Source of the DNA: Bacilli bacterium
GTDB lineage: Bacteria > Bacillota_I > Bacilli_A > RFN20 > CAG-826
DNA length: 64,000 nucleotides
Assembly: GCA_022482735.1 (NCBI GenBank)
Contig: JAKVOO010000001.1
Coordinates: 1,399,004 to 1,463,003, forward strand
Direction: 5' to 3'
Of the stretch, positions 16,879 through 62,001 are shown piece by piece (position 1 is the first letter of the stretch; each line of letters opens with the position of its first letter). A program made the translations under genes and the position numbers. Under the pieces are notes generated by a model that saw only the letters and a list, made by a program, of their open reading frames with translations, did no database searches and was not told where the DNA came from.

Positions 16879-16885
16879 GGTAGAT

Positions 16886-20796: not shown

Positions 20797-21066
20797 CATT
20801 ATTTTTGACCTTTTTATTTACTTGCCATTTTTGGCTACTTAACAAAATAAGTAAAAGTCGAAAATTTAGCACTGAAATTGAAAAAAACGACCTTTTTTCC
20901 ATTTGAAACCGCTATCAAAAAAACTTTACAAGATTAACCTATTAAGTATAATGTAATTGTCATTAAACAAAATTACCGCGAAAAGGACCATTCGTTTAGC
21001 GTTATTCGTAAGAAATTGTTTTTTACTAGCGGTCCTTCTCAAGCAAAAAAGGAAAGGAGGGTAATT

Positions 21067-26825: not shown

Positions 26826-26830
26826 TTTAT

Positions 26831-28303
26831 ATGCGTTTAGCAGGTATTCTTCAACCAGTTTCATCGCTACCCGCCAAGCACGGGATGGGAGATTTTGGGC
26901 CGACGGCCTATAAATTTGTCGATTTAATTAAAGCGAGTAAAATCAAGATTTGGCAGATTTTGCCCCTCAATCCTTTGGGATACGGCAATTCACCATATCA
27001 ACCATATTCGAGTAAAGCCTTAGATGAGGCTTATATTTCCCTAGAACTACTGCAGAAGGAGGGTCTATTGCCTAAGCGCGTACCCACCTTTAATCGCCGA
27101 AAAGAAGTTGTCGACTTTGATGGAGTGCATAAATTTAAAGATTTTTGGTTGAGGAAAGCCTACGCCAATTTTATCAAGCTTCATAAACGGGGATTATCCG
27201 CATTTAAAAAGAGCAATTCATGGGTTTACTACTATGCTGTATTTCGTCTTTTAAAGTCGCAAAATGAAGAAAAATTATGGACGGAATGGCGTCAAGAGGA
27301 CAAGAATTGGATTATCGATCATAAGAAGAATCTTGCCCCGTTTGAAGATGAAATCAACTATCTTATTTGGCTCCAATACATTGCTTGGAGACAGTGGAAT
27401 GGTTTACATTTGTACACTAATGCCCAAGGCATAAAAATAATGGGTGACATTCCAATGTACGTTGGAATAGATAGCGATGATGTTTGGACCAATCAAGAGG
27501 CGTTTCTTCTCGATAAAGATGGAAATCCATCGTTTATTGCCGGCGTTCCACCCGATTATTTTTCAAAGACCGGGCAAAGATGGGGTAATCCAATTTATAA
27601 CTGGGATTATTTGAAATCCCACGGATATTCTTTTTGGAATGAAAGACTAAGTTACAATTCGCAGTTATTCGATATTATTCGTATTGACCACTTTCGCGCC
27701 TTTGATACATATTGGAAAATCCCGGCATCGTGCCTGACAGCCGTAGAGGGAGAGTGGGTTTTGGGCCCAAGATATGATTTCTTTGACGCTTTGTTCAAAT
27801 TAATGCCGGACATTCAAATTGTGGCTGAAGATTTGGGGGATTTGCGACCGGAAGTATTGGAATTACGCGATCATTATCATTTTATGGGTATGAAGATTAT
27901 TGAGTTTTCTTTTAATCCATATGATTTGAATGAAACAAGAAAAAATGATCGTCCCCATTTAATTGTCTACACTGGTACGCACGACAACGAGACGATTTTA
28001 GGCTGGTGGATGAACCGTGAGCCAGAGTATCAAAATCGCACGCTCGGCTATTTTTATGATTTAGGATATCGGGAAAATTTGCCTTCAATCACAGATAAAT
28101 TTGTTGCTTTTACGCTTGATAATGTTGCCGACTGGGCTATTTTGCCAACGCAGGATATTCTTGGACTCGACAATTCGGCTCGCATAAATACTCCTGGAAC
28201 GATTGGCTCACCAAATTGGGAATGGAAGTTGGCGGACTATCGTCTTTTAGAAGAAAGATTAAAACTATTCAAGGTGCTTGTATCAAATAGCAATCGTGGA
28301 TGA
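26831..28303 (+). CDS. malQ: 4-alpha-glucanotransferase (amylomaltase, GH77).
   Basis: N-terminus GILQPVSSLP…GDFGP. RIDHFRAF and the GTHDNETILGW region. Confidence 0.85.
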   Translation: MRLAGILQPVSSLPAKHGMGDFGPTAYKFVDLIKASKIKIWQILPLNPLGYGNSPYQPYSSKALDEAYISLELLQKEGLLPKRVPTFNRRKEVVDFDGVHKFKDFWLRKAYANFIKLHKRGLSAFKKSNSWVYYYAVFRLLKSQNEEKLWTEWRQEDKNWIIDHKKNLAPFEDEINYLIWLQYIAWRQWNGLHLYTNAQGIKIMGDIPMYVGIDSDDVWTNQEAFLLDKDGNPSFIAGVPPDYFSKTGQRWGNPIYNWDYLKSHGYSFWNERLSYNSQLFDIIRIDHFRAFDTYWKIPASCLTAVEGEWVLGPRYDFFDALFKLMPDIQIVAEDLGDLRPEVLELRDHYHFMGMKIIEFSFNPYDLNETRKNDRPHLIVYTGTHDNETILGWWMNREPEYQNRTLGYFYDLGYRENLPSITDKFVAFTLDNVADWAILPTQDILGLDNSARINTPGTIGSPNWEWKLADYRLLEERLKLFKVLVSNSNRG

Positions 28304-28323
28304 TCTTTAAGGAGGAACACCAT

Positions 28324-31152
28324 ATGAAACTTTGGAAAAAGATTAAGACTGTAGGCGCTTTAATTGGCGCGGCTTTAATCTTAATTGTGGCGTCTAATTC
28401 GACTATTGTGTCTTCAAGATTGGAAGCCCCGACTAGAAGAAATGTCGCTTATCTAGAGCCGACAATCGTATTTCACTATCACCGGGCGGATAATGATTAT
28501 ACCAATTGGGATCTTTGGCTTTGGGAGTATGGCAAGGACGGGGTTGCGACCGCATTTACCGATGAGGATAGCTATGGTAAATATGTAGCTCTTCCCCTAT
28601 CTACTTGGTCAAATACGGAATCGGTCTATGTTATCGCTCGTAAAACGGATTGGTCGGCGCAAACTTCGGATTTGGAGGTTGTGTATAGCAATTTTACCTT
28701 ATCGACCGATAATGCCTATGATATATACATGGTTGACTTAGAGAACACCCTCTATGTTAGCGCCGAAGAAGCTTTAGCGGATAAAATTCTTAGTTCGCGC
28801 TTCGTTGAAGTAAATCAAGTCGAAGTAGTGACAAACTATTTCCCTTCCGCTTTTATCGTTAAGGAAAATGATAATCCCTTAACGAGTTCCAGCGGAACTC
28901 CCGTCTATAACGCAACTTCCTACTCGTACAAGACAAGCGTGACGGTTGGAGACAGTGGCTTTGCTATGGATTTTAACAATAACTATGCGGTTTTTGTTAC
29001 TTTCCACGACAGTGGAGAAACCAAATCAGCTCCCGTATCAATTTCGGGTCTATTTGATACTTCTTACTTTAAGGAAAATTCGACTTACAGTGGCAGCGAT
29101 CTAGGCGTAACTTATTCTTCAACATCATCAATATTTAAAGTATGGGCGCCGACAAGCAGCCAAGTTATATTAAGAATATACGAAAATGGAACCCCAACGT
29201 CAGTTGATGCCGTTTTAGGCGACAACAACTTTACCCCTTATTCAATGAGTAAGGGAAACTATGGAGTTTGGTCAGTCACGGTCAATGGCGATTTGAATGG
29301 AAAATATTACACTTTCTTTGTAACTAATGCGATGTTTCCTTCAGGCGTAGAAGCAGTTGATCCATATGCTAAAGCGGCGGGAGTGAACGGGGAAAGAGGA
29401 ATGATTTTAGATTTTTCCACCACTGACCCGACGGGCTGGGAAGATGTGAACTTACCAGACATTGAACCAACGCAAGCGGCGGTATATGAAATGCATGTTG
29501 CCGATTTAACAAGTGATTCAACCTGGAATGGTCATGAGAGTTCAAGAAAAAAGTATCTTGGCCTTATTGAAGAAGGAACAACCTATACGCAAGATGGAAT
29601 GACAGTAACCACGGGCTTCGACCATATTAAGGAACTAGGTGTTAATGTCGTGCAAATTCTTCCTTTCTTCGATCAGAGCAATGATGAAGTTAATGTTTCA
29701 TTTAACTGGGGATACAATCCCAAAAACTACGATGTCCTAGAAGGTGCCTATAGCAGTGATCCCTACGATGGTGCCGTTCGCGTTAATGAATTCAAGCAAG
29801 TTGTTCAAGCCTATTCACAAGCCGGTATTCGTATCGTAATGGATGTTGTTTATAACCATGTTGCTAGTGTCAGTTCATCATCATTTAACAAAATAGTTCC
29901 AGAGTATTATTTCCGTTATAAGGAAGATGGTTCTCTTTCTAATGGTTCAGGAGTGGGTAATGATACGGCTTCGGAACGCATTATGATGCAGCGCTTCATG
30001 GTCGACAGCACCGCTTGGTGGACGGAAGAATACAAAATTGGTGGCTTCCGATTTGATCTTATGGGACTCCATGATGTGGATACTATGAATGCGATTTCTG
30101 CGCGCGTCCACACAATTGATCATCATTCGCTGATTTATGGCGAACCTTGGAAACTATCAACCGTTACTGCGGTTAACACCACTCTAGCTACCTATGATAA
30201 TATTCCACAAATTAACAATGTCGGCGGATTTAACGATGCTTTCCGGGACGGAGTTAAAGGAAGCGTTTTTGATAAGACCGGTGTTGGATGGGTGCAAAAT
30301 GGCAACCCCAGTGCCACCCAAATAACAAATGTTAAGAATGGATTACTGGGGGTTGAAACAGGTGGAAGTGATGATCCATCGCAAGTGGTTAATTACGTTG
30401 ATTGCCATGACAATAACACATTATTTGATAAAATGTCGCTAACGACAGATTTAAATATTTATGATGAAAACACAATTTTGAAACGGGTAACGCAAGCAGC
30501 GGCTATGACTTTGACCGCTGAAGGCATCAGTTTCTTTCAAGGAGGGACGGAGTTTTTAAGGACAAAGCCAAAGGATGGGGGAAATTTTGATGATAACTCC
30601 TATCAATCCAGCTATGAAGTTAATGACTTTGACTGGGACCGAAAGATAACCTATCACCAGCAATACGAAATTTTTAGAGAATTAGTCGCCCTTAAGACCG
30701 GAAACAGTCTTTTCCAATATGGAACGAGAGAAGCCATTGATTCGCATGTCACCTACACGAGTGCAAGTGAACTAGGAATTGATGCTCCAATTATGAAACT
30801 ATCCTATGTTGATGATAATAATCAAATGGCAATTTATCATATTGGGACAACCACACGGGTTACGATAGACCTTACTGGCTATGAAGTGGTGGTTGATACG
30901 AGCGGAACTTTTGCTGTTGGAGAGCGTCTTGGCAGCGAGCGGTTGTTAGGAAATACCACTTTGATTTTGAAGCCAATCTCTGGTAGTTCAACATCAAGCG
31001 ATTCAACTAGCGGTGGCAGTTCATCCAACGGTGATGGTGATAACGGTGGGCTTTCCGCTTTAGACATCTCTTTAGCAATTGGTGGAGGATTGATTATTCT
31101 TGGCGGAGGGACGGCGTTGATACTTCTTCTTAAGAAAAAGAAAGAATTTTAA
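28324..31152 (+). CDS. pulA: Cell-surface type I pullulanase (GH13_14) with N-terminal CBM-like modules and a C-terminal TM anchor plus KKKK tail. No LPXTG motif.
   Basis: Signal peptide. YNHV, GFRFDLMG, YVDCHDN and GEPW regions. Ser-rich stalk, then LAIGGGLIILGGGTALILLLKKKKEF. AAGGAGG RBS at 28324. Confidence 0.85.
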   Translation: MKLWKKIKTVGALIGAALILIVASNSTIVSSRLEAPTRRNVAYLEPTIVFHYHRADNDYTNWDLWLWEYGKDGVATAFTDEDSYGKYVALPLSTWSNTESVYVIARKTDWSAQTSDLEVVYSNFTLSTDNAYDIYMVDLENTLYVSAEEALADKILSSRFVEVNQVEVVTNYFPSAFIVKENDNPLTSSSGTPVYNATSYSYKTSVTVGDSGFAMDFNNNYAVFVTFHDSGETKSAPVSISGLFDTSYFKENSTYSGSDLGVTYSSTSSIFKVWAPTSSQVILRIYENGTPTSVDAVLGDNNFTPYSMSKGNYGVWSVTVNGDLNGKYYTFFVTNAMFPSGVEAVDPYAKAAGVNGERGMILDFSTTDPTGWEDVNLPDIEPTQAAVYEMHVADLTSDSTWNGHESSRKKYLGLIEEGTTYTQDGMTVTTGFDHIKELGVNVVQILPFFDQSNDEVNVSFNWGYNPKNYDVLEGAYSSDPYDGAVRVNEFKQVVQAYSQAGIRIVMDVVYNHVASVSSSSFNKIVPEYYFRYKEDGSLSNGSGVGNDTASERIMMQRFMVDSTAWWTEEYKIGGFRFDLMGLHDVDTMNAISARVHTIDHHSLIYGEPWKLSTVTAVNTTLATYDNIPQINNVGGFNDAFRDGVKGSVFDKTGVGWVQNGNPSATQITNVKNGLLGVETGGSDDPSQVVNYVDCHDNNTLFDKMSLTTDLNIYDENTILKRVTQAAAMTLTAEGISFFQGGTEFLRTKPKDGGNFDDNSYQSSYEVNDFDWDRKITYHQQYEIFRELVALKTGNSLFQYGTREAIDSHVTYTSASELGIDAPIMKLSYVDDNNQMAIYHIGTTTRVTIDLTGYEVVVDTSGTFAVGERLGSERLLGNTTLILKPISGSSTSSDSTSGGSSSNGDGDNGGLSALDISLAIGGGLIILGGGTALILLLKKKKEF

Positions 31153-31162
31153 GCAAAAAGTT

Positions 31163-31192
31163 AAGGCCTTGAAAGAAGGCCTTTTCTTTTTT
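31163..31192 (+). terminator. Rho-independent terminator after pulA.
   Basis: Palindrome aaggcctt-gaaag-aaggcctt followed by a T-run. Confidence 0.6.
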
Positions 31193-31357
31193 GGCTAAAA
31201 AAGCGTATTTATTGCAAATGTGGATTAAAAACAAACTTAAATTAAACTTAAAATAAATTAGTCTAAAGTAAATATGTGTTGACGAAAGCGCTACCATATA
31301 ATAGAATTAAGTAGGTTATAAACCAACTTTTCAATTGATAAGGAGGAATGAACGTCA

Positions 31358-32824
31358 ATGAAAAAGTTTGCGAGAACGTTGTTTGTCGCAGGTTTGTTGT
31401 TTGGAGTTGCCGGCTGTGGTGGCGGCACGAGTACATCTAGTGAACCATCATCAGAGCCATCGTCGGAAGTAGCCACTTACTTGGTTTCGTTTTGGAAGAA
31501 CACGGATGGTGGCTTTCTAAGCGAAGTTGAAGTTAATGCTGGAGAAACAGTTGCTCGGCCAACCGATCCAACTTGGGAAGGCTACGATTTTGTCGGATGG
31601 TATACAGATAAAGCCTATACCGCCGAATACGATTTCGATACGCCGGTGAATGGCGATTTAGATCTCTATGCGAAATGGAATATTCAATTCGTTCAAGATC
31701 CAACCGTTTATCACTTAATTGGTAGTTTTAAAAACACTGCCTATCCTGCCAATTGGGATGTCACCGATGAAACGACAAAATTGGTTGATGAGGACTTAGA
31801 AGATGGCAAAAACATCTTTAGTATTGACATTGAATTTGGTCAATACGCGACATTTAAGATTAAGGATATGTCGACGGGTACCGCCTGGGACGACGGTGTT
31901 TATTGGGGTGTCGAATATGTTGATATGGAGTCCGGTAATGCGGCTGAGAATGTTCAGGCCGACGATCCGACTTCCGATAAAGAAAACATTACAATGCTCC
32001 ATGCAGGTGCATATCATATCGAACTTGAAACTCAATATGTAAACAGTGCTCCAGTTTTATCAACGGCAGTCATTCGGATTAATCGTACTGGCGATGCTGT
32101 TGGTGAAGGTGTTACTCAAGATGCTGATCCAGGTGCGGTTGATACGTGGGGTATTATCGGCGGCTTTAATAGTTGGACCGAAGATGCAGTAAGCTTTGTA
32201 GCTACGAGTGTGGCCGGAACTGAACTCTGGGTTCGCAATATGTTTATTCCAGCCGGAACCGAATTCAAAGTTCGGGCCAACGCTGACTGGATTAAGCAAT
32301 TCGCTTTTGGCGGATTAAATGTTGATGCTAGTGCGGAAGGCATGCTTATTGGTGCTACAGCTATAGCCGATGATCCAGAAACAGAAGAAGTTGAATCTGG
32401 ATATGATCCAAATTCTAATATCAAAGCAGCGGTCGATGGCGTCTATAGTTTCCACATTTTGGTTACTGATGGCGTTGCGGTTTTAACTGGCTTTGGACAC
32501 AGCTTAACCGCTGATACATTCTATCTTGCCGGATCATTTGCAGTTGGCGATGCTTGGAGTAACCAAGTGGCCTTAACTGCCGGTGAACCTGTGGTTGATG
32601 AGACGACCACAACTTATACTTATACAGCTACCGGATTAGCGCTTGTTACGAATAATGAGCTTAAAGCTAAGTCGGAAAACACTTGGGAAATTTCATTTGG
32701 TACGGAAACAGGAAACTTAATAGTGACCGAAGACGGAACCTATGATGTTACCTTGACGATTGTTGTTACGGAAGGTTCGGTTGTACTCAGTTCGACTCTT
32801 GCCCTTTCGCCAACAGCTCTCTAA
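31358..32824 (+). CDS. Non-catalytic surface lipoprotein. It has one Listeria-Bacteroides (Flg_new) repeat followed by three starch/glycogen-binding-like beta-sandwich modules (GSFNNW-type, CBM20/25/26/48-like).
   Basis: Lipobox VAGCGGG. YLVSFWKNTDGGF…GYDFVGWYTD…LYAKW. Repeated motifs LIGSFKNTAYPANW, IIGGFNSWTED…IPAGTEFKVRANADW and LAGSFAVGDAWSN. AAGGAGG RBS. Confidence 0.55.
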   Translation: MKKFARTLFVAGLLFGVAGCGGGTSTSSEPSSEPSSEVATYLVSFWKNTDGGFLSEVEVNAGETVARPTDPTWEGYDFVGWYTDKAYTAEYDFDTPVNGDLDLYAKWNIQFVQDPTVYHLIGSFKNTAYPANWDVTDETTKLVDEDLEDGKNIFSIDIEFGQYATFKIKDMSTGTAWDDGVYWGVEYVDMESGNAAENVQADDPTSDKENITMLHAGAYHIELETQYVNSAPVLSTAVIRINRTGDAVGEGVTQDADPGAVDTWGIIGGFNSWTEDAVSFVATSVAGTELWVRNMFIPAGTEFKVRANADWIKQFAFGGLNVDASAEGMLIGATAIADDPETEEVESGYDPNSNIKAAVDGVYSFHILVTDGVAVLTGFGHSLTADTFYLAGSFAVGDAWSNQVALTAGEPVVDETTTTYTYTATGLALVTNNELKAKSENTWEISFGTETGNLIVTEDGTYDVTLTIVVTEGSVVLSSTLALSPTAL

Positions 32825-32850
32825 TTTATACGTATTCTAGCGAAAGAAAA

Positions 32851-32877
32851 GCTCACCTTTGCGGGTGAGTTTTTCAT
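32851..32877 (+). terminator. Rho-independent terminator.
   Basis: ctcacc-tttgcg-ggtgag hairpin plus TTTTT. Confidence 0.5.
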
Positions 32878-32939
32878 TTTATTATTCTTTTAACTATGTT
32901 AAAATAATAATAATAAATATATCGACACTGGTACAAATT

Positions 32940-35767
32940 ATGAAAAAAAGAAACCCAATATATTTTTTAGGATTAATTACTATGCTTTTTGTTTCTTCAT
33001 GTGGCAAGAATGACAATTCGTCGACCCATAGTGACACTAGTGAATTAATCACCAGCGAAAACACATCCGATAGTTCTTCACTGAAAGACACATCAACAAC
33101 GACAAGTGAAACGCCGATTACGGGAACACCCGATTCGGTTTCATTATTTTATCATCGCGATGATAACGGCTATAGCGATTATGGAATTTGGTATTGGACG
33201 GATAAGGTCGCAGGAAATTTGCTTCCCTTTGAAACATATGACGATAATTTTGCGGTAATCAATATTCCGAGCACCATGTATGAGGGCGAGAACGGATTTT
33301 ATTTAATTGTTCGAAAAAAATCGACATGGGATGGTCAAAGCCCGGATTTTTATCTTGATTTTTCGCAGTATACTTTAAACTCGGATTTAACGATGGATGT
33401 CTACATTATTTCGACGGAAACCCTCGATGTTGAAGCATATTCAACACCTAAAGAGGCGCTGGGCAATCGAATTGTAAGCGCCACACTTACCTCTTTTTCC
33501 ACCATTAAAGCAACGGGAACGGCTCCCGCCAATCAATGGTCACTTTATTTGAATGATGAGAAAATTGACGAACAAGCTGGCTCGGATTCAAATGAGGTAA
33601 TTTTTAACTTATCAACCGATGTCGATCTTACGGATAAATATACAATAAAAGCTGTATTTCCAGATGCTATGGACAAAATTCGTTCCAAAGTAGTTTCGGC
33701 CGCTCCCCTATTTAACACCAGCGAATTTGATTCGCGTTACGCTTATGATGAGGATGATTTAGGAGCGGTTTATTCTTTAGAGTCAACGGTTTTTAAACTT
33801 TGGGCTCCGACTAGCTACGAAGTGACGCTCTTTCTCTATAAAGTTGGCTATACCTCTAAAGAAACGGGAAATATACTTCACGATGTCCCTCAAAAGCGAA
33901 TACCAATGGAGTACGCCGGTCAAGGCGTATATAGGGCTGAGGTTGCAGGTGATTTAGATCGGATGTATTACACTTATCTTGTTAATAATAGCAATGGAAA
34001 AAATGAAGTTATTGATCCATATGCGAAAAGTGCAGGACCTAATGGTCGTCGCGGGCAAATATTAGATTTTGCTAAATATGAGCCTGAAAATTTTGATAAT
34101 ACAACATTTTCCGATATTGCCTCCCCGAATGATTTAATCGTTTATGAAATGCATGTTCAAGATTTGACTAGCGATTCATCTTGGAATGGCGATGAGGCTA
34201 ATCGCGGCCATTTCCTTGGATTAATCGAATCAGGAACCACATATTCTATGGACCAAACTACGGTTACTACCGGGTTTGATCATATCAAGGAATTGGGTAT
34301 TAATGCCGTTCAAATCATGCCTTTCTACGACCAAAGTAATGATGAACTTAACCCCGCTTATAACTGGGGATATAATCCAGCAAATTATAATGTTCTTGAA
34401 GGTGGATATTCATCTAATCCCAAATTAGGCGAGGTCCGAGTTCAAGAATTTAAGCAAGTAGTTTCCGCTTATGCCAATGCGGGCATTCGAATTATCATGG
34501 ATTTGGTCTATAATCACGTGGCAAGTTTTTCTAGTTCTCAATTCCAAAAAATAGTTCCAGATTACTATTTCCGGCGAAACGCCGATGGAACTTTAAAAAA
34601 TGAATCGGGAGTTGGCAACGATATTAAAACGGAAGCCACAATGATGAGCAAGTACATTGTCGATTCAGTGAAGTTTTGGGCAAGCGAATACCACATTATG
34701 GGATTTCGATTTGATTTAATGAGTTTAATTGATGATGCGACTTTACAAAAAGTTGATGCTGCACTCAAAGCGATTAATCCCGATATAGTTGTTTGGGGTG
34801 AACCATGGAGTGGTGGTGGCTATATGGGACCAGCCAAAGTTTATTCAGCAGCCCTTAAAGATACGAGTGTTGCTGCGTTTAATGATGTTGGTCGGAACGC
34901 CATAAAAGGTGATAATAATCTAAATGGAAATGGTTCGCAATATGGATGGCTTCAAAAAGAGCCAGCCCATAATCAGAGCAATGTCAGCTATTTAAACCGC
35001 GTAAAGGGAATGTTAGCCGGGTATATGGGCGATTACTATGAGGCAACAAATTACACCGATCCAAGCAAAACGGTCAATTATGTTGATTGCCATGATAACT
35101 TTACAATTTTTGATCACTTGCTAGCAACAATGGGAAATAATCCCGATGTTTCGGCGCGTGCAAGTCTAGTTGCCAATTCCTTGGTTTTAACCTCATTTGG
35201 AACACTTTTTTTCAGGGCGGTGACGAAATAATGCGCTCAAAGGAATATGATCCGACTACAGAAATAGGAGCTATCTTTCTATCTACTCATGGCGGCGAGT
35301 CCGTTAAGATTGGTGACAAATACTATTCGGGAAACTCATATAATTTAGAAAGCACTGTCAATTCTTATAAGTGGGCAGATAAAATCAAATACGCGAGTTA
35401 TTTCGAAAGTTACAAGAATTTAATTGCGTTAAGAAGAAACAATCCCGCCTACAAAATGTATGATAGCGATGATATTTCTGCTCATTTTGGTTACTGGAAT
35501 AATGTTCAAGACTTATCCTATAGCGCAATTGCTAGTTACAACACTAAGGCGGCAGAATCATCTGGAGCGATATATTCATTTTATACCGGCATGCTCTACG
35601 GAAGTAGTACAGCAAACACAAATATTAATACCAAGCAAACAATTTCTTGGGGTGCGGGTGATTGTATTGTCCTATTTGATTCAACGGGTGAGCTCACGGG
35701 CCAAACGCTTTCTTCGTCTATTTCGCTTAGTTCTTTGCAAACCGTTATTGTTCAGAGGTTGTCCTAA
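32940..35767 (+). CDS. Second type I pullulanase (GH13), lipoprotein-anchored. The frame is broken in a T7 run at 35206-35212 (ORFs 32859-35231 and 35231-35767).
   Basis: Lipobox FVSSCGKN. YNHV, GFRFDLMS, YVDCHDN and GEPW. Continues in the +1 frame (…GTLFF|QGGDEIM…) and aligns with the pulA C-terminal region. Confidence 0.8.
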
Positions 35768-50389: not shown

Positions 50390-51725
50390 AATGTGGCTAA
50401 CTCAATGCAACACCTTGATTATTCGGTTATAAGTCTTCTTTGCTTGCGGGTTGATTGATGGTTAGATTATTTGCTGTAGTCTAACCTTTTTGTTTGGAAT
50501 TCTATGAATGTTTATGACATCTAGGAATTCCTTTCCAAACTTATTTTTAACTAAGTCATAGGGAGTTTTGTCTCCTTTTGACTTTCTTACGTATGAGTTG
50601 ATGTTTGAAAACATCTCATCAACTTGTTCTTGAGTGAGGAAATCCAGACTCTTTCCTTTAGGAATCATGTAACGGATGAATTCGTGATTTCTCTCACATT
50701 CTGATTTATCGGTTGATCGATATGGATTGGTGAAGTAGGTGCGGCATATCTTTTCACCGTTTTGATCAGTCTCAATCTGGTTGAAATAGGAGAACTCGAC
50801 TCCATTGTCGGCCAAGTTGATGGGAAGTATCTTCTTAACCATCTCATTACCTAACTTATTAAATAAACGGATAACTTTTGTTCGCACATCAACAGGCGAG
50901 CTCTTTTTGATGAGGATGCCAAATTGAAAATTATATTTTGGAAATGTAATAGTGAGTATTGCTTGTTCATCACTTATTTTTCCAATGACTGAATCATATT
51001 GAACTATGTTCTCCCTTTTGTGGTGTTTAACATAGTTAGTAAAGTCTTTATACATTCTTCCTATCAAAACTCTAATGGCACGAATCTTCAATTCTTCAAG
51101 TGACTTTATGTCGCTGTGCTTATATGTCACATAGCGTCGAAGTTCATGAGGTCGAATACTCAGATTTCCTCGATAACATAATTTTCTGATGGTTCTTTCG
51201 TGACATAACATGGACAAAACCTTATTTGAAATATAAATATGATGAAGTGATTGTCCTAGATGAACTCCTTCACTAACAATCTCGTTTATTATTTTGATTT
51301 TCTCCGGAGAAATCTTTGGTTTACTTCTTGAAGACTGCCTCAAGTTTTTGGAGCGGGCCTCTGCTTCATTAAAATTATAGTAATATTTGTCCTTAGAACA
51401 AGTTTTGTATGGGCAGGCATTGCAAAGTCCATTTAGTTTATTTCTTCTCTCACAATCTGGATAAGAGCAAGTTTTAACAACTGTAAACTTATGTATTTCT
51501 CGAGAGATTGTTGATTTGTTGACACCCAAGCGAGTACCTATTTGTGTGATACTTTTACCATCATGGATACAAGCTTGGATTATCATCCTATCCTCAATGG
51601 TTAAATGCTTTCTCTTTGCTTTCATTTGCTATATCTCTCCTTTCTAAAAAGCAAAGCAAAGAAGACAACATAATTCTAAAACAAGAGTAAACTCGTCAGG
51701 TTGCATTAAGATTGTCACTTAACCA
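50390..51725 (-). mobile_element. IS30-family insertion sequence of about 1.34 kb with a single transposase gene and imperfect terminal inverted repeats. The ends contain a CAATGCAAC motif that resembles the CAACGCAAC in the IS30 IR. Boundaries are accurate to about ±25 bp.
   Basis: Left end …ggctaactcAATGCAACacc (about 50392-50415). Right end …ggtTGCATTaagattgtcac (about 51700-51722). The two are mutually reverse-complementary with mismatches. Confidence 0.7.
50462..51625 (-). CDS. IS30-family transposase (N-terminal HTH plus DDE integrase core).
   Basis: HTH_38-like DRMIIQACIHDGKSITQIGTRLGVNKSTISREI. 387 aa, which is within the IS30 size class. Confidence 0.85.
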   Translation of the reverse strand: MKAKRKHLTIEDRMIIQACIHDGKSITQIGTRLGVNKSTISREIHKFTVVKTCSYPDCERRNKLNGLCNACPYKTCSKDKYYYNFNEAEARSKNLRQSSRSKPKISPEKIKIINEIVSEGVHLGQSLHHIYISNKVLSMLCHERTIRKLCYRGNLSIRPHELRRYVTYKHSDIKSLEELKIRAIRVLIGRMYKDFTNYVKHHKRENIVQYDSVIGKISDEQAILTITFPKYNFQFGILIKKSSPVDVRTKVIRLFNKLGNEMVKKILPINLADNGVEFSYFNQIETDQNGEKICRTYFTNPYRSTDKSECERNHEFIRYMIPKGKSLDFLTQEQVDEMFSNINSYVRKSKGDKTPYDLVKNKFGKEFLDVINIHRIPNKKVRLQQII

Positions 51726-56614: not shown

Positions 56615-57166
56615 TTATTTGTTATTTTCTAAATGAACTAAATGTTTTTGATAAAGGCTATATATGCAATCCGCCACCTCTTCCACATTTTGATTTTCAC
56701 TATCAATCACATAATTGGTGGGACCGACATTTTCAGGCGCAAACTTAATCAAATCATTAGTGAGCCGTTCCTCAATAATCTTCGGATCATCTCCGCGTTC
56801 CAACATTCTTCTTCTGCGCGTTGGACTTTCTGCAAACAAAAAGAAAGTAACAATTCGGGGATTATTTAATTTCTTAAAAGCATTGAGGCCATTAGGATCA
56901 ACTAGCAATACCTTGTTATCGCCGATTTCTTTCTTACTTGTGCCATAAAAATTACCATTATATAGGGTCGTTTCAGCAAAAGCATTTTGCTCTTTTAAGG
57001 TTAAAAAATCCGGTTTGGATACAAAATAATAGTCGACTCCATTTTGTTCCCCTTTACGCATATCTCTTGTCGTATGGGTGATAATCTTGCGAATACCATA
57101 TTTTTTAGCTAGCGTTTTTGCCACTTCTGTTTTTCCCGAGGCGCTAGCACCGACAAGTATAATCAT
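56615..57166 (-). CDS. gmk: Guanylate kinase family protein (possible paralogue).
   Basis: P-loop GASASGKTE. THTTRDMRKGEQNGVDYYFVS. GNFYGT. GGAGAT RBS. Confidence 0.65.
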   Translation of the reverse strand: MIILVGASASGKTEVAKTLAKKYGIRKIITHTTRDMRKGEQNGVDYYFVSKPDFLTLKEQNAFAETTLYNGNFYGTSKKEIGDNKVLLVDPNGLNAFKKLNNPRIVTFFLFAESPTRRRRMLERGDDPKIIEERLTNDLIKFAPENVGPTNYVIDSENQNVEEVADCIYSLYQKHLVHLENNK

Positions 57167-57285
57167 AAGTTATCTCCAATTAATTTATATTATATATTAA
57201 CTTGCTGGCAAATGGCATAACTTAGATTAAAAACTGAAAAAAAAGATTTTTTTTGCTACTTACATATTAGAAGAAGGAGTTTTAT

Positions 57286-57624
57286 ATGAAAGTAGATACG
57301 GCCAATTTTCGTGAACTAAGTAAAGAATTCAAACGTCTAGGAGCTATATATCGTATTTATAAAGCGCGTAAAAAAATTGCTGACAAAGGCATCGAAAGAT
57401 TGAATTTATACTTGGCGGAAGAAAAAAAAGATAATAATGAAGAAAACTTTGTTGCCCTAATTAATAACTTACTCGATGAAATACCAGCGAAATATGCGCT
57501 AATTTTAAAAAGTGATTATTTCTTTTTAGAAGAAAAAAATTGGTGGCAAAAGTATTATAGTCGGGCAACATACTATCGATTGAAGTTAATATCAATGAAA
57601 GAGTTTTTATCATATATATACTAG
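57286..57624 (+). CDS. Hypothetical cytoplasmic protein and the first gene of the type IV filament-like operon.
   Basis: GAAGGAG RBS. No recognisable domain. Confidence 0.4.
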   Translation: MKVDTANFRELSKEFKRLGAIYRIYKARKKIADKGIERLNLYLAEEKKDNNEENFVALINNLLDEIPAKYALILKSDYFFLEEKNWWQKYYSRATYYRLKLISMKEFLSYIY

Positions 57625-57627
57625 AGT

Positions 57628-58635
57628 ATGAGAATATCATTACTATTTAGTATTTTGTCTATAGTTGGAACAAATTTGCTCGTATTTGAAACCAATCCAG
57701 CTTTAGTTATTAAAAACATTAATATTTTTCCTTTAGACAGGGAAATAAGCAATAATTTAGTTTTTACCGTTGAGCCATTTTTTACTGGATTAGGCGGAAT
57801 AACCGTATGTATTAGTGATTCAAGTCGTGATTTTGAATCAGTATTCGCCCAAGATACGACTTTTGTAAACGGACAAAATAAGACTTTTGTTGCAACAATT
57901 GCAAAACATACAATCGTAGAAAAAACCCGACTGACAATTGCCGTTTGGAAAAATAATGAAATCCGGAAATTCCGCAGTAAAACAATAACCATATTTCCTC
58001 GTGAAAATAAGCATATAAGTATAAATTTTGTAAGGCATTATGTACCCGAAGGAATGGTTTGCAATGTTTCATCGCTAGGTAATGTTCAGTATCAAAATGA
58101 GAACATTTGGTTTACAAATTTTAATGATAAAAAGGAGGAACCTATATATCATCACTTTGATTTTTCGCCTTTTCAAATGATGGTTACAAGTTCTTCACAT
58201 CATAGTGAAGAAATGTGGGCCCAATTAAATATTGAAGACGAAAACAACCTTTTTCCGGCATTTAGTAAGGAAGGAAAAGCTGTATTTCCTATGAAAATTA
58301 GACTTATTAACAATGTTTATATTTTCTCGTTAGTGCCCATCTATTTTAACACTCAAACCTATCAGTTATCGCAAGAGAGAATTCATCAGGGATATGAGGA
58401 AACTGAACTTGTATATTTTCCCAAGAATTCCTTTATGGAAGGAAGTAAACTGAAATTTTCCATCGAAATATATAAAATCGGATTTAATCGAACAACGGCC
58501 TCTTTTAATGGTGAAATAAGATATGCTCATCCTTTAATCGGCGATATGGATCAAGCAATGGCTTATATTTCTACTGGCGCAAGTTCGTATCAAGGGGTAG
58601 TTGGAGCAGAAAGGACGATATACACTCATGCTTAA
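57628..58635 (+). CDS. Hypothetical exported or membrane-anchored protein (N-terminal hydrophobic segment).
   Basis: N-terminus MRISLLFSILSIVGTNLLVF. Coupled to its neighbours (4-nt gap upstream, ATG…TAA overlap downstream). Confidence 0.4.
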   Translation: MRISLLFSILSIVGTNLLVFETNPALVIKNINIFPLDREISNNLVFTVEPFFTGLGGITVCISDSSRDFESVFAQDTTFVNGQNKTFVATIAKHTIVEKTRLTIAVWKNNEIRKFRSKTITIFPRENKHISINFVRHYVPEGMVCNVSSLGNVQYQNENIWFTNFNDKKEEPIYHHFDFSPFQMMVTSSSHHSEEMWAQLNIEDENNLFPAFSKEGKAVFPMKIRLINNVYIFSLVPIYFNTQTYQLSQERIHQGYEETELVYFPKNSFMEGSKLKFSIEIYKIGFNRTTASFNGEIRYAHPLIGDMDQAMAYISTGASSYQGVVGAERTIYTHA

Positions 58636-59014
58636 TATGCTAATTGCTTTTACATTATTAGTAAATTTTGTCGTTATTTATGATTTCTCATACCGGGTTA
58701 ATTACATCAATCGAACATTCTATTTACTTGCCAGTGGGGTTGTGGAAAATGCAATTGATGTCACTAATGAAAATCCCGAATTGCTATATTTTATTCCGTT
58801 GGAGTTAGAAGCCTCAGTGACATCCTACTTAATAAAAGAACTCTATCCCGTTACAAAGGTTTTTTATATATCATTCACTTATCTTAATGAACAACAAAAT
58901 GGGCTTTGCTTTGATCGATGTCGATTAGTAGATATTCATTTACGAGTTCCGTTTTCCAAATTATTTGATTATAAAAAAAAGCTGACATTTAGCATTATTA
59001 ATCAATATGAATGA
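58628..59014 (+). CDS. Small protein with an N-terminal TM helix. Possible pseudopilin-like component.
   Basis: MLNMLIAFTLLVNFVVIY hydrophobic N-terminus. The start overlaps the upstream stop codon. Confidence 0.35.
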   Translation: MLNMLIAFTLLVNFVVIYDFSYRVNYINRTFYLLASGVVENAIDVTNENPELLYFIPLELEASVTSYLIKELYPVTKVFYISFTYLNEQQNGLCFDRCRLVDIHLRVPFSKLFDYKKKLTFSIINQYE

Positions 59015-60056
59015 AAATGAGAAAAAAGTATGTGAGTTTATTTTTTCTTCTCCCTTAAGAACGTTACTAGACGACGAGGATGTTACCGACATTAGTTATA
59101 ATGGGGCTTCTATATTTTTCTTCACCCATAGACATGGGCGTCAAAAAAGTGATATTAAACTTTCTCACGGCGAAGCCAACGATTTTATTCGACAAATAGC
59201 CAATCTAAACAATGTTCTATTTTCGACTGCCAAGCCGATTATGGATACCTCAGTTGCTAATTTAAGAATTAGCGCAATCCACGACAGCCTTGCTCGAAAA
59301 AACGGAGAAAAAGTGACTCATTTTTCAATTCGAAAACACAGCCAAAATATAATCGATTTCCGGCAAAAAGAAGCGGGAAATAGTTTGCTCTTTGACTTAT
59401 TATCCGCTTATGTTCAATGTAAATTATCCATCGCCATCTCGGGTAAGGCTGGTAGTGGAAAGACCGAGATGCAAAAATACATTTTAACCCTCTTGCCGAA
59501 GAATGAACGAGTTGTTCTCATTGATTCAGTTGATGAAATTGAAGAGAGCAATCAATATGATCTAGATCTTTCGATTTGGCGAGTGAGCGATAATGATGAA
59601 CTTAGAACACAAGAATTGATTAGGGCTAGTTTAAGGCAAAATCCCGACTGGATTATTCTGGCTGAAGCGCGGGGCAAAGAAATGAAAGATATTCTATCCT
59701 CAATAAGAAGCGGACACCCGAGTATTTTTACTTGCCACAGCCTTAGAGCTGAATTAACTCCATATCGCATCTTAGAATTAATTGGTAATCCTAACCTAAT
59801 TGACTATTCAAAGGTGCGAATTGATGACATAACCAATCATATCCCGCTTTATGTTCATATGGAAAAGAAAATAACCAGTAAGGGAATTGTTCATCAGGTT
59901 AGTCAAGTGGTGATTTATGAACAGTCAAAACCGCATCTTATATATCAAAAAAAGGAAAAGCCTTTTTACTATCCTTTGCCCTTAGTCTTTGGCCAAATGA
60001 TAGGGGAAATTGATCTTAATTTACTTAAGGCTTGGAAAAATAAACAACATGATTAA
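59007..60056 (+). CDS. Secretion/pilus-assembly ATPase of the CpaF/TadA/VirB11 clade (T2SSE superfamily).
   Basis: Walker A ISGKAGSGKTEM. Asp box VVLIDSVDEIEE. Walker B DWIILAEARGKE. His box SGHPSIFTCHSLRA. Confidence 0.75.
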   Translation: MNENEKKVCEFIFSSPLRTLLDDEDVTDISYNGASIFFFTHRHGRQKSDIKLSHGEANDFIRQIANLNNVLFSTAKPIMDTSVANLRISAIHDSLARKNGEKVTHFSIRKHSQNIIDFRQKEAGNSLLFDLLSAYVQCKLSIAISGKAGSGKTEMQKYILTLLPKNERVVLIDSVDEIEESNQYDLDLSIWRVSDNDELRTQELIRASLRQNPDWIILAEARGKEMKDILSSIRSGHPSIFTCHSLRAELTPYRILELIGNPNLIDYSKVRIDDITNHIPLYVHMEKKITSKGIVHQVSQVVIYEQSKPHLIYQKKEKPFYYPLPLVFGQMIGEIDLNLLKAWKNKQHD

Positions 60057-60744
60057 GAGAATTTATATAGTCGCAATTTTTGCCATTATGTTTGAGATTA
60101 TTGCCGCTCTTATGTTTTGGCCTTTTCCCACTTTCTATTTGGCTTCGGCTTTTATTTTGCTGGGATTAATTGGCATTATTTATGAAAGTAATAGTATTTT
60201 TTCTTTGATAAAAAAACAACGATTGTGTTTCTCATTTATCAGCAATATGGTTGTAGCCATAAATGTTAAGAAGACAATTGAAGATGCCTTTATCTTTTAT
60301 CTTGAGCGAGAAAATAATCATTCGCTTATTAAATCTTTAGTCCATGGCTTATCAGCGCTTGAAGCAATTAGTGCTCTAAACGAGTACTTTTCTTACCCAA
60401 TTTACCAGAATTTTCAAGATATTATTACTATCTATATTAATGAAGGTGGTGACATTTTGACTCTAACAACCTACTTATTAGATGATATCCACCGAGCGAA
60501 GAGTCATCTTCAAAAAGTCATTAAATTATCACTAAGAAAATCTATCGAAGTTTTAATACTATGGATTTTATGTTTTTTGGCTGCGATTATGATGCGTTTT
60601 AGTATTAAAGATATTTATGAAGCAATCATCAGTAATTATTACATTTCTTTAGGCCTAGTTACTTTGTATGGGCTTCTAATAATGACCTTTTATTTTGGCT
60701 GTCGCCTTTTTAAAAGTGAAATCACTATTAAGGAGCAAGTATGA
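60049..60744 (+). CDS. GspF/TadB-like inner-membrane platform protein (half-size).
   Basis: 1 N-terminal and 2 C-terminal TM helices flanking a helical cytoplasmic domain (…LVHGLSALEAISALNEYF…INEGGDILTLTTYL). The ATG at 60049 overlaps the ATPase stop codon. The track's 60010 start is a TTG. Confidence 0.5.
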   Translation: MIKRIYIVAIFAIMFEIIAALMFWPFPTFYLASAFILLGLIGIIYESNSIFSLIKKQRLCFSFISNMVVAINVKKTIEDAFIFYLERENNHSLIKSLVHGLSALEAISALNEYFSYPIYQNFQDIITIYINEGGDILTLTTYLLDDIHRAKSHLQKVIKLSLRKSIEVLILWILCFLAAIMMRFSIKDIYEAIISNYYISLGLVTLYGLLIMTFYFGCRLFKSEITIKEQV

Positions 60745-61379
60745 ATAAAAGAAATCAATCACGAACTAAATTAATAATTACCATCGCAGTCGTTATCCTT
60801 CTTTTTCTCCTTCTTGTTATGGTTATAACTAAAAATCGTCTAATTATGAATATCGCCTTCATGAGCATTATTTTTTTTGTTTTTATGGTGGTTAGTTATC
60901 AGCATCGTTTAAGATCATTAAGAAATAAAGATAGATTGTCAAGCTTAGTTTATTTCTTGAGCAGAGTTCGCCATTTTCTAAATAATGATTCAACAATTTA
61001 TTATGCACTGACCGAAGCAAATAAATTGTCATCGCCGATTATTCAAGAAGATATTAAAGAGTTAATAGATGGAATTAGCCAAGATAAGTCGGTAATGCCA
61101 TTTATAAAATTCGCTCAGGCATTTAATTCTAATCTTATAGAAGAGATTATTATTCAACTATACCAATATGAAAACAACTCAAGTCAGAAAAATACATTTA
61201 ATAATTTCTTTCATCTTTTTTCGCAATTTCAGGAAATAGAAACAAATGAGCGTTTTGAACATTTGGAACAGTCTTACGTGACAGTATCTTTTTTGCCCAT
61301 GCTCGGCGGCGGTTTATTGATTCTTACATTGGCCTTAGGTGTTATGGCGTCGATAGGAGAAATTATTAATGGGTTCTAA
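60741..61379 (+). CDS. Second GspF/TadC-like platform protein (half-size).
   Basis: Same topology. AAGGAG RBS. Overlaps the upstream stop codon. Confidence 0.5.
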   Translation: MNKRNQSRTKLIITIAVVILLFLLLVMVITKNRLIMNIAFMSIIFFVFMVVSYQHRLRSLRNKDRLSSLVYFLSRVRHFLNNDSTIYYALTEANKLSSPIIQEDIKELIDGISQDKSVMPFIKFAQAFNSNLIEEIIIQLYQYENNSSQKNTFNNFFHLFSQFQEIETNERFEHLEQSYVTVSFLPMLGGGLLILTLALGVMASIGEIINGF

Positions 61380-61707
61380 AATTGGCTTTATTCTTTCACT
61401 AGTATTTGTCTTTCAAACATTTCTTTTTGGTGGGGATATTCTTAGCATTCAAATTATTAGAAGCGATTTAGATTCTCTTTCTCAACTCATTGCGCAAAAA
61501 ATTAGCAAAAGTGGAAAATTAGATGATGACATCAAAGCAATAGCATCCAGTAATAAGGCAGAAGTAAAGTGCATAAATAACTGCTTTCCACAGTTTGGCG
61601 ATCAATTAACTTTTACTCTCACTCGCCCTTATTATCCATTAATTATCAGTAGTGAAGAAATGATGGTATCAATCACTAGATCAGTCTTAATTGGCTACTA
61701 TAACTGA
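61369..61707 (+). CDS. TadE-like/pseudopilin-like small protein (N-terminal hydrophobic helix, then an amphipathic region).
   Basis: MGSKIGFILSLVFVFQTFLFGGDILSIQIIRSDL. Overlaps the upstream gene by 11 nt. Confidence 0.35.
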   Translation: MGSKIGFILSLVFVFQTFLFGGDILSIQIIRSDLDSLSQLIAQKISKSGKLDDDIKAIASSNKAEVKCINNCFPQFGDQLTFTLTRPYYPLIISSEEMMVSITRSVLIGYYN

Positions 61708-61722
61708 AGGGAGGTGATTAAT

Positions 61723-61908
61723 ATGGGAGAATTAAAAGGACAGCTTTTAACGATACTGTTGGTATTGATGATATTTGGCATTATGGCCACAGCATTTAAG
61801 GCAATGTTTCAAAGTGCCACAAACGAGATATCCAATCGATTGAGCGAAGAAATAAACGCAGCTAAAAAGCCTGCATTTGGATCCTTTGAAATAATATTTA
61901 TCGATTGA
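61723..61908 (+). CDS. 61-aa pilin-like protein with a short N-terminal leader ending in KG, then a hydrophobic helix.
   Basis: MGELKG|QLLTILLVLMIFGIMATAF. Strong GGGAGGTG RBS. It does not have the canonical E+5. Confidence 0.3.
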   Translation: MGELKGQLLTILLVLMIFGIMATAFKAMFQSATNEISNRLSEEINAAKKPAFGSFEIIFID

Positions 61909-61940
61909 AATAAGGGGTAATTGTTACCCCTTATTCTTGA
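61909..61940 (+). terminator. Terminator-like hairpin ending the operon.
   Basis: aaggggtaa-ttg-ttacccctt perfect 9-bp stem. Weak T tract. Confidence 0.4.
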
Positions 61941-62001
61941 CTTTAATGGATTTATCGGTAATATATGATAATGCATAGCACAAAGAACCGAGGTATATCA
62001 T

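Follow-up and report, generated by a model that had tools for sequence, protein, structure and literature searches.

What kind of machine is encoded by a run of eight closely packed genes of which, in the records examined, only the ATPase is annotated, the other seven of the eight products being listed as “hypothetical”? The genes, here called p1 to p8, lie on the plus strand between positions 57286 and 61908 of a 64,000-nucleotide stretch (the window) from a Bacilli bacterium of the GTDB lineage RFN20; CAG-826 (assembly GCA_022482735.1, contig JAKVOO010000001.1, positions 1,399,004 to 1,463,003 of the forward strand). An initial annotation had described them as a compact Tad/Com-like type IV filament operon, and all eight open reading frames (ORFs) are present in the place and orientation that it gave. 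Our reading, to which we assign a probability of about 60%, is that the operon encodes a self-contained and very divergent member of the type IV filaments (T4F), probably serving adhesion or the display of an adhesin. The narrower statement that it specifies an ATPase plus a split GspF-fold platform is held with greater confidence. To judge from the searches described below, the operon would by membership be neither Tad, nor Com, nor a type IV secretion system (T4SS).

Conservation of the operon

Relatives were collected by a pattern scan for the ATPase in one genome per GTDB species. About 352 species encode such a protein, and the best 80 of these, in which the ATPase shows 37–45% identity, were examined as loci with flanks of about ±8 kb. 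The carriers of these best 80 are all uncultured metagenome-assembled genomes (MAGs) labeled as Bacilli, Erysipelotrichaceae, or Bacillales, including Candidatus Onthovivens, and come from gut, rumen, and digesters. An identical ATPase was found on a JGI metagenome contig of 1.48 Mb and in several assemblies of shorter length. Together with six near-identical contigs (L001–L006), the 80 species loci (L007–L086) make up the 86 loci that were counted; after two iterations of hidden Markov model (HMM) searching, p1 was recognized in 69 of them and p2 to p8 in 80–86. Around the ATPase relatives of about 80 sampled species the eight genes retain their order and strand. Since the eight families recur in other species, collinear and on the same strand, the operon is a conserved unit and not a chance run of ORFs. 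Pfam, NCBIfam, and PHROGs were run on all eight proteins and were informative for p4 and p1 only.

The ATPase

The product of p4 (59007–60056, plus strand; 349 amino acids [aa]) contains the motifs that the initial annotation had pointed out, a Walker A sequence GKAGSGKT, a Walker B sequence (D)WIILAEARG, and the His box GHPSIFTCHS. It matches Pfam T2SSE (PF00437) with an E-value of 4e-21 and 75.5 bits, the cut-off being 24.9. The top NCBIfam families are VirB11, TadA-type, TrbB, and FlaI, each scoring far under its own cut-off: the highest value, 116.6 bits for VirB11 (TIGR02788; cut-off 249.95), covers only residues 131–291, and the TadA-type (TIGR03819) and ComGA (NF041000) models give 100.8 bits (cut-off 373) and 38.9 bits (cut-off 300), respectively. 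Among solved structures the best match is the archaeal GspE 2OAP (1e-19), followed by VirB11 (2e-14), CpaF and FlaI (both 4e-13), and PilT (about 1e-4).

The relationships of p4 were outlined in a neighbor-joining (NJ) tree of 29 taxa, a sketch that includes some partial reference sequences and was rooted at its midpoint. The window ATPase, its MAG family, and six ATPases from Firmicutes plasmids form one clade with 100% bootstrap support, and VirB11, TrbB, CpaF (pSymA and Caulobacter), FlaI, and 2OAP all fall outside it. The tblastn scores run in the same direction, at 107–135 bits to the Firmicutes plasmid ATPases versus 57–86 bits to the Gram-negative VirB11, TrbB, and CpaF proteins. The initial annotation had spoken of a CpaF/VirB11-clade ATPase; NCBIfam and PDB do put p4 on the CpaF/VirB11/FlaI side and not with PilB, GspE, or ComGA, but in the tree it is a member of neither the CpaF nor the VirB11 clade. 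A grouping with conjugative VirB11 or TrbB, which had also been raised, was not seen in this rough tree. By its sequence, p4 is a hexameric secretion-type ATPase and probably the motor of the system.

The platform proteins

Downstream of the ATPase gene lie p5 (60049–60744, plus strand; 231 aa, the longest ORF starting from a TTG at 60010) and p6 (60741–61379, plus strand; 212 aa). Transmembrane (TM) helices are found at each end of p5, with a helical cytoplasmic core between them. Alignment of the two families with hhalign gave 93%, and the p6 HMM matches 19 members of the p5 family, with E-values down to 4e-14; judged by these profile comparisons, p5 and p6 are paralogues. A natural fusion of the two, P0336 (387 aa; p5-like N-terminal half, 99.7%), has the size of a two-domain PilC/GspF protein. 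The predicted model of p6 (predicted local distance difference test [pLDDT] 74) is a helical bundle of the GspF/PilC type. Its top structural match is SpoIIIAB, which itself has the GspF fold, so that this match does not discriminate between the readings considered below. The predicted fold, the paralogy, and the natural fusion lend support to the earlier proposal of two half-size GspF-like platform proteins arranged like TadB plus TadC. The Pfam model T2SSF (PF00482) matched neither protein, the profiles of both gave no significant match in the PDB, and a word-indexed profile search with p6 returned, among the 120 matches listed, only proteins of the same family without a Pfam domain.

A further member of the family, P0296 (337 aa), carries an unrelated N-terminal extension of approximately 125 residues ahead of a p6-like domain. 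It alone aligns over the full length of T2SSF, at a non-significant E-value of 7.5.

The candidate pilins

The last two genes, p7 (61369–61707, plus strand; 112 aa) and p8 (61723–61908, plus strand; 61 aa), encode small proteins whose N-termini were examined by position counts over 66 (p7) and 74 (p8) unique orthologues. In p8 the leader reads M-[SG]-E-[ILV]-K-G, of which the M, E, K, and G, along with F+12, are invariant in 74/74 sequences. There follow Q-L-L-G, a hydrophobic helix of about 23 residues, and a short polar tail. Positions +1 to +6 read Q-L-L-G-I-I and so include neither Glu nor Tyr, Q+1 being present in 66/74; neither Asp nor Glu occurs anywhere from +1 to +20 in the 74 orthologues. 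Removal of the leader would leave a mature protein with a median length of 49 aa. Three weak matches were obtained when the p8 profile was compared with the PDB, and two of these are type IV pilins, namely TcpA (E 1.3), whose alignment starts at the N-terminus predicted for mature p8, and an archaeal pilin (E 6.6). The initial annotation had described a 61-aa pilin-like protein lacking the canonical Glu+5 at the end of the operon, and the leader, the hydrophobic helix, and the missing Glu+5 all recur in the orthologues. On these sequence features p8 is a candidate major pilin.

Behind its leader, M-[SGA]-[YS]-K-[ILVM]-[GS], the p7 family has a hydrophobic helix, then an Asp that is invariant at +17, and finally a domain of about 85 aa; its profile found no match in the PDB. 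The leaders of p7 and p8 are six residues long and end in Gly, resembling class III signals with a type IVa length, and are not followed by Glu+5. These properties make p7 a candidate minor pilin or pseudopilin. The earlier description of p7 as TadE-like holds for its architecture only, since the TadE model and the other pilin models match none of the proteins.

We infer that a prepilin peptidase encoded outside the locus removes the leaders of p7 and p8 by cutting behind the Gly. Neither the operon and the rest of the window nor the flanks of the 80 related loci yielded a gene for TadZ or a prepilin peptidase. The initial annotation had already remarked that the window has no prepilin peptidase, TadZ, or secretin, and an A24 motif scan and a Pfam search of the ORFs of at least 100 aa were likewise negative. 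The motif scan was crude, using G.[GAS]D[VIALFM][KR]x plus a relaxed GxGD search in hydrophobic ORFs, and neither form gave a credible match in the window or in L001–L086.

The products of p1, p2, and p3

The first gene, p1 (57286–57624, plus strand; 112 aa), had been called uncharacterized. Its product matches NCBIfam NF045770 (MPN403_MG284_C) with an E-value of 9.1e-18 and 64 bits (cut-off 37.3) over positions 1–57 of the 57-position profile. When other members of the p1 family were tested, 5/5 matched phrog_248 (“transcriptional activator”), with a best E-value of 4e-5, and the matching region was again the C-terminal domain. The protein is therefore placed in the MG284/MPN403 family, related to phage transcriptional activators. 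A match to sigma-28 region 4 was non-significant (E 0.68), and the p1 profile gave no significant match in the PDB. From these similarities p1 is probably a dedicated transcriptional activator of the operon with a C-terminal helix-turn-helix (HTH)-like domain. Nothing relevant on MG284 or MPN403 was found in the literature.

The product of p2 (57628–58635, plus strand; 335 aa) has an N-terminal Sec-type signal, with a lipobox in some orthologues, and is an exported, probably beta-rich protein. It evolves rapidly, aligned orthologues showing only 13–22% identity, and conserved motifs (YVNPxTLxMS, FYLPxN, and LIGDCxNSxYCV) are found toward the C-terminus. Pfam, NCBIfam, and PHROG searches gave no match. 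In the plasmid versions of the module described below, its place is held by genes for thioester or SpaA-type adhesins. The window protein lacks both Cys residues of LIGDCxNSxYCV, which most orthologues keep, and has a longer tail, a variant that it has in common with L007 and L028.

The p3 gene (58628–59014, plus strand) encodes a protein with an N-terminal membrane anchor and, in the alignments, nearly invariant cysteines C94 and C98. The initial annotation had given its length as 137 aa with an N-terminal TM helix; the anchor stands, but the likely start at 58628 yields 128 aa, the 137-aa figure being that of the longest ORF, which starts from a TTG at 58601.

Relatives on Firmicutes plasmids

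The closest annotated relatives of the ATPase are encoded on Firmicutes plasmids and include the “putative VirB11” of pLS20. Carriers of the module comprise pLS20-like B. subtilis plasmids and plasmids of Listeria, Paraclostridium, Enterococcus, B. thuringiensis, and Peribacillus. The ATPase HMM scores 207–217 bits on the pLS20-type module. In the pLS20 family the products of genes 36 to 41 are 126, 402, 268, 243, 120, and 47 aa long. On the pLS20-like B. subtilis, Paraclostridium, and E. faecalis plasmids, an adhesin gene (thioester-domain or SpaA-type) is followed by one or two short ORFs. A protein of 126–140 aa is encoded next, then the ATPase, three proteins of about 270, 240–265, and 120 aa, and lastly proteins of 47–48 aa. 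The Listeria plasmids carry the module beside a thioester adhesin and a DUF916 protein. The position directly downstream of adhesin genes is seen at L088:6434-10491 (B. subtilis NRS6190_2), L090:5356-9605, L095:4243-8261, and L087:6419-10045.

Profile–profile comparison connects p5 with the gene-38 type (91.9%), p7 with the gene-40 type (88%), and p6 with its B. thuringiensis/Peribacillus homologue (98.0%), which in turn matches the gene-39 type (96.5%). The corresponding match between p3 and the gene-36 type is weak (51.6%, E 1.5e-4), and p8 gave no match to the gene-41 type. Searches with single HMMs add further weak matches: p3 scores 17.0 bits against a Paraclostridium protein of 129 aa, p7 scores 27.6 bits against a 115-aa Peribacillus protein (MSEKMG...) and 20.0 bits against the 120-aa protein of a pLS20-like plasmid, and p8 matches three 64-aa proteins of a Peribacillus plasmid at 12.5 bits. 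In the Pfam search, DUF5411 (gene-36 type) and DUF4320 (gene-40 type) appeared below threshold only. According to these profile comparisons, genes 37 to 40 of the pLS20 family are homologous to, and collinear with, those for the ATPase, p5, p6, and p7, and p3 is a possible counterpart of gene 36. A p1 homologue is absent from the plasmid loci compared.

The three 64-aa proteins are encoded on a Peribacillus asahii plasmid (L091:3699-4451) by tandem, near-identical genes; each begins with MGEKSG and a hydrophobic helix, and the p7-like gene (MSEKMG) comes next. Because of these starts, the leader type is common to different lineages and to both small-protein families. The order on this plasmid is rearranged, a p6-like gene preceding the ATPase and a p5-like gene following it.

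A gene annotated as TrbC/VirB2 stands just downstream of the module on E. faecalis pJH-T4 (L095:8513-8788), and at the equivalent place of the pLS20-like plasmid (L088:11008-11244) there is a gene for a 78-aa protein with two TM segments. VirB2 is usually described as missing from Gram-positive systems.

Gene 36 of pLS20 is listed as “unknown,” gene 37 as “putative VirB11,” and genes 38 to 41 as “unknown” (Val-Calvo et al. 2021, PMC8557374), so the comparison with the plasmid genes transfers no function. Gram-positive conjugation systems are held to have neither VirB11 nor pili (PMC12857230, PMC8557374). No paper was found that reads the window operon or pLS20 genes 36–41 as a pilus system, and the lactococcal conjugation papers show no module of this type.

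Comparison with known systems

Among known systems, Tad/Flp resembles the operon in that p4 comes from the CpaF/VirB11/FlaI side, the putative platform consists of two half-size paralogues, p8 (about 49 aa when mature) is of Flp size and has no globular head, and p7 has the N-terminal helix of a TadE-like architecture. It differs in that p4 falls outside the CpaF clade and, being 349 aa long, is without the long N-terminal extension; T2SSF detects neither p5 nor p6; p8 has neither the G/xxxxEY Flp motif with its Glu+5 nor a Flp_Fap match; the window locus lacks TadZ/CpaE, CpaB/RcpC, and TadV; and p1, p2, and p3 have no Tad counterpart. A prepilin peptidase gene outside the locus is known from a monoderm Tad system, that of Bifidobacterium breve. 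Canonical Tad loci with TadZ and CpaB are present in other gut Firmicutes that are reduced or uncultured, namely Bulleidia (PMC12786226), where TadV is found as well, and TANB77 (PMC11680825). The window operon, in contrast to these, is not canonical.

Genes 36–41 of pLS20 correspond to the operon in the common ATPase clade, in collinear order and sizes, and in the exported-protein or adhesin gene just upstream. Unlike them, the window operon is chromosomal and inherited with its neighborhood, and no VirD4, VirB4, or relaxase gene is linked to it; it has an ATPase 50–120 aa shorter, the p1 activator is present, and p2 replaces the thioester adhesin. A p8 homologue exists on the Peribacillus plasmid, and none was detected among the 47-aa proteins of the gene-41 type.

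The ComG system is a monoderm T4F whose one operon holds the genes for its ATPase, its platform, and several small pilins; it has no secretin, and its peptidase, ComC, is encoded elsewhere. Set against it, p4 scores far under the ComGA cut-off, the platform is split whereas ComGB is a single two-domain protein, and p7 and p8 lack both the N-methylation motif and the Glu+5 of Com pilins. Archaeal type IV pili and the archaellum (FlaI/FlaJ, Epd, Aap) offer a different set of likenesses: the best solved relative of p4 is the archaeal GspE-like 2OAP, and one of the three weak p8 matches in the PDB is an archaeal pilin. In archaeal class III signals of the FlaFind type, Gln+1 is common and Glu+5 is not required, and the K-G/Q-L-L junction of p8 resembles them. 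However, p4 is apart from FlaI and 2OAP in the tree, FlaJ and PilC are single two-domain proteins, and the carriers found are all Firmicutes. The VirB11 and TrbB ATPases of Gram-negative T4SS are close to p4 in size (about 330–350 aa) but form no clade with it.

Proposed function

In the T4F reading, p4 would be a cytoplasmic hexameric ATPase driving a membrane platform made of p5 and p6, half-size GspF/PilC-fold proteins split in the manner of TadB plus TadC. This platform would lift small membrane-embedded subunits into a helical filament, of which p8, at about 49 aa after leader removal and thus of Flp size, would be the major subunit; p7, and perhaps p3, would prime or cap it. The p2 protein may be presented or pushed out by the filament, p1 would act as a small dedicated transcriptional activator of the operon, and the biological role would be adhesion to host or partner cells. 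From the position of p2 at the place of an adhesin gene, and from the link of the module with adhesins even where no T4SS is nearby, we infer an adhesive function and a role for p2 in it. In support of a T4F, the p8-like gene is triplicated on the Peribacillus plasmid, as is often the case for major pilin genes. The formation of any filament is itself a surmise drawn from this set of components.

Several points weigh against this reading. The T2SSF, TadE (PF07811), Flp_Fap (PF04964), and N_methyl models, which the initial annotation had named as checks, found nothing at E<=10 among the operon proteins of the window or their MAG and plasmid homologues. The p5 and p6 proteins show no sequence relationship to T2SSF, TadB, or TadC in Pfam or profile searches; an exhaustive profile search with p6 gathered 357 representatives forming a closed family, and the 150 listed all belong to it, with none recognizable as T2SSF. 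Since no sequence bridge to T2SSF emerged, the platform assignment leans on the pLDDT-74 helical-bundle model of p6, a kind of fold that can match by chance and for which the Foldseek E-values were non-significant. The candidate pilins lack Glu+5, and the invariant Glu in the leader of p8 is unusual for prepilins. The 64-kb window, the 80 related loci, and six plasmid loci all lack a prepilin peptidase. For p8, no homologue was detected among the 47-aa proteins of the pLS20 type. An AlphaFold2 model of p2, built with four usable homologues, reached a pLDDT of 37 and gave no usable structure, and the case for p2 as a candidate adhesin or displayed cargo is purely positional. None of the members of the family has been observed to form a filament, and Gram-positive conjugative elements are stated to form no pili (PMC8557374).

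Alternative explanations

The plasmid relatives invite the explanation that the operon is part or a remnant of a conjugative T4SS, in which the ATPase would be a VirB11 powering a DNA-transfer channel and p5 to p8 channel or accessory membrane proteins. VirB11 gives p4 its best NCBIfam score, its closest annotated relatives lie in conjugation operons (pLS20-like, Paraclostridium, Enterococcus) beside VirD4-like genes, and pLS20 gene 37 has been named accordingly (Val-Calvo et al. 2021, PMC8557374). We nevertheless regard a T4SS as very unlikely. The VirB11 match is partial and far under its cut-off, and p4 is separated from genuine VirB11 and TrbB both in the tree and by its lower tblastn scores to them. 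Neither the window nor the conserved flanks of the 80 loci contain a gene for VirB4, VirD4, VirB6, VirB8, or a relaxase, and the chromosomal position beside a guanylate-kinase-like gene is kept in 65 loci. Moreover, the membrane partners of p4 have the predicted GspF/PilC fold, a feature of T4F and not of T4SS, and in the 15 kb examined on the Listeria plasmids the module is not accompanied by any T4SS gene. The platform fold is also where a channel of the SpoIIIA type comes into view, with p4 as SpoIIIAA and p6 as SpoIIIAB in a sporulation-related or analogous cell–cell feeding tube: there, too, a secretion-type ATPase is followed by a small GspF-fold membrane protein, and SpoIIIAB is the top match of the p6 model. 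Its probability is next to negligible, considering that no SpoIIIAA model is among the 25 best NCBIfam families listed for p4 or among its Pfam matches, that ring-building (AG/AH/AF-like), AE-like, and other SpoIIIA components are missing, that the gene order differs, that there are two GspF-fold paralogues rather than one, and that pilin-like genes follow.

Two further explanations keep the pilus-like core and change its purpose. Tad-type pili support DNA uptake in Micrococcus luteus. They do so in Liberibacter as well (PMC8513845), and the carrier lineages have reduced genomes with many auxotrophies (PMC12306168, PMC10868615), so that a competence pseudopilus, replacing or supplementing ComG and taking up DNA for nucleotides or recombination, would have a place in them; p1 would then be a competence-type activator, and an own small activator as the first gene is frequent in competence regulons. 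Yet comEA, comEC, comF, and dprA are absent from the window and the conserved flanks, the plasmid relatives are tied to adhesins and not to DNA-uptake genes, and there is no hint of DNA binding in p2, p3, p7, or p8, which makes DNA uptake improbable in our view. Equally improbable, we believe, is an export device resembling a type II secretion system (T2SS), in which a short, non-protruding pseudopilus would work as a piston to release or surface-expose p2 (or, on the plasmids, the adhesin) without forming an adhesive filament. It would use the same core parts as a T4F filament, p2 has a Sec-type signal and is encoded within the operon, and the plasmid versions stand directly downstream of large surface adhesin genes. 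No T2SS-type piston is known from a monoderm as a precedent, however, and two features, the triplicated p8-like genes of Peribacillus and the similarity of p8 to Flp in size, point to a polymer that is made in quantity. From sequence alone, the piston and the filament are indistinguishable.

There is also a more far-reaching version of the T4F reading, which we put forward as doubtful. According to it, the chromosomal operon of several hundred species of reduced-genome Bacilli and the pLS20-type genes 36–41 of Firmicutes plasmids would together be a distinct, unrecognized T4F branch, whose pilins may need no prepilin peptidase. The N-terminus M-[SG]-E-x-K-G would be kept except for excision of the Met ahead of the small second residue, and the N-proximal Glu would replace Glu+5. 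On plasmids the module would be the missing Gram-positive “conjugative pilus,” presenting the thioester adhesin for mating-pair formation in liquid.

Gene arrangement and genomic neighborhood

The starts of p1 to p8 were taken from the gene calls on identical public contigs and agree with ribosome-binding sites. In order, the junctions consist of a 3-nt gap, overlaps of 8, 8, 8, 4, and 11 nt, and a 15-nt gap between p7 and p8. Five of the seven junctions thus overlap by 4–11 nt, and this spacing fits the translational coupling proposed earlier. A GAAGGAG ribosome-binding site was read upstream of the p1 ATG. The intergenic region 57167–57285, between p1 and the divergent guanylate-kinase-like gene, is the presumed site of the operon promoter; promoter-like matches within it did not exceed shuffle expectation, and no promoter was singled out. 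Immediately 3′ of the p8 stop, at 61909–61935 on the plus strand, a terminator scan found the hairpin AATAAGGGGTAA-TTG-TTACCCCTTATT with a 12-bp stem. It is likely to be the operon terminator, a reading based on its position, as terminator-like sites in the operon region are no more numerous than shuffle expectation.

The G+C content of the operon region (57286–62000) is 0.32–0.35 as against 0.37–0.42 over most of the window, although a few other stretches are just as low. An old horizontal origin or the high content of membrane proteins would fit this value. An integrated conjugative element was ruled out by the conserved chromosomal context and the lack of T4SS and relaxase genes. A phage origin was likewise rejected, as just 18 weak matches to phage records were obtained, the top two apparently being Listeria sequences of plasmid type that were recorded as phage.

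The upstream neighbor kept in 65 loci is a gene of the guanylate kinase family (56615–57166, minus strand; 183 aa), divergent from the operon. This may be plain synteny or may reflect a functional link through the common intergenic control region. When the flanks were clustered, the remaining genes proved to be housekeeping genes, and in several loci an acyl carrier protein gene lies 3′ of the operon. About 5.8 kb past the end of the window, a gene (L001:17677-21050) encodes a 2190-aa protein with no Pfam match, possibly a surface protein.

Besides housekeeping genes, the window contains a starch/maltodextrin locus. The starch/glycogen cluster (16859–18610 and 25182–35231) encodes two alpha-amylase-family enzymes, a 4-alpha-glucanotransferase, two pullulanase-like proteins that carry PUD and CBM48 domains (950 and 790 aa), and a protein of 488 aa containing a Listeria-Bacteroides repeat; it suggests a starch-degrading lifestyle for the host. 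Three genes of a maltodextrin-type ABC transporter seem to be split (19258–20725, 21016–22471, and 24139–25177), into MalK-like ATPase pieces of 154 and 330 aa, solute-binding protein pieces of 239 and 269 aa on overlapping ORFs, and a short ORF of 114 aa plus a permease of 215 aa. They could be pseudogenes, or the assembly could contain frameshift errors at these places. A gene located between the NrdDG and the CNNM transporter genes (50462–51625, minus strand) encodes a 387-aa protein with the Pfam domains HTH_38 and HTH_23, typical of IS30-type transposases.

The taxonomy of the carriers and the link of the p1 family to mycoplasmas fit the RFN20/RF39/ML615J-28 group, in which the absence of peptidoglycan and sortases is predicted for some families (PMC10868615). 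In the Pfam search no informative cell-wall genes were found among the genes of the window.

Implications

If the proposed reading is true, it adds to the T4F a branch that current models overlook, an annotation blind spot. The surface biology concerned bears on the dependence of the reduced-genome Bacilli of gut and rumen on their hosts or partners. How far the rules for pilin processing and assembly hold could be tested on the candidate pilins, with their lack of Glu+5 and an acidic residue that is invariant in the leader. Genes 36–41 of pLS20, conserved but unexplained, gain a concrete and testable reading; should a T4F module work together with the adjacent adhesin, its part in mating-pair formation in liquid would be open to experiment in the tractable host B. 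subtilis.

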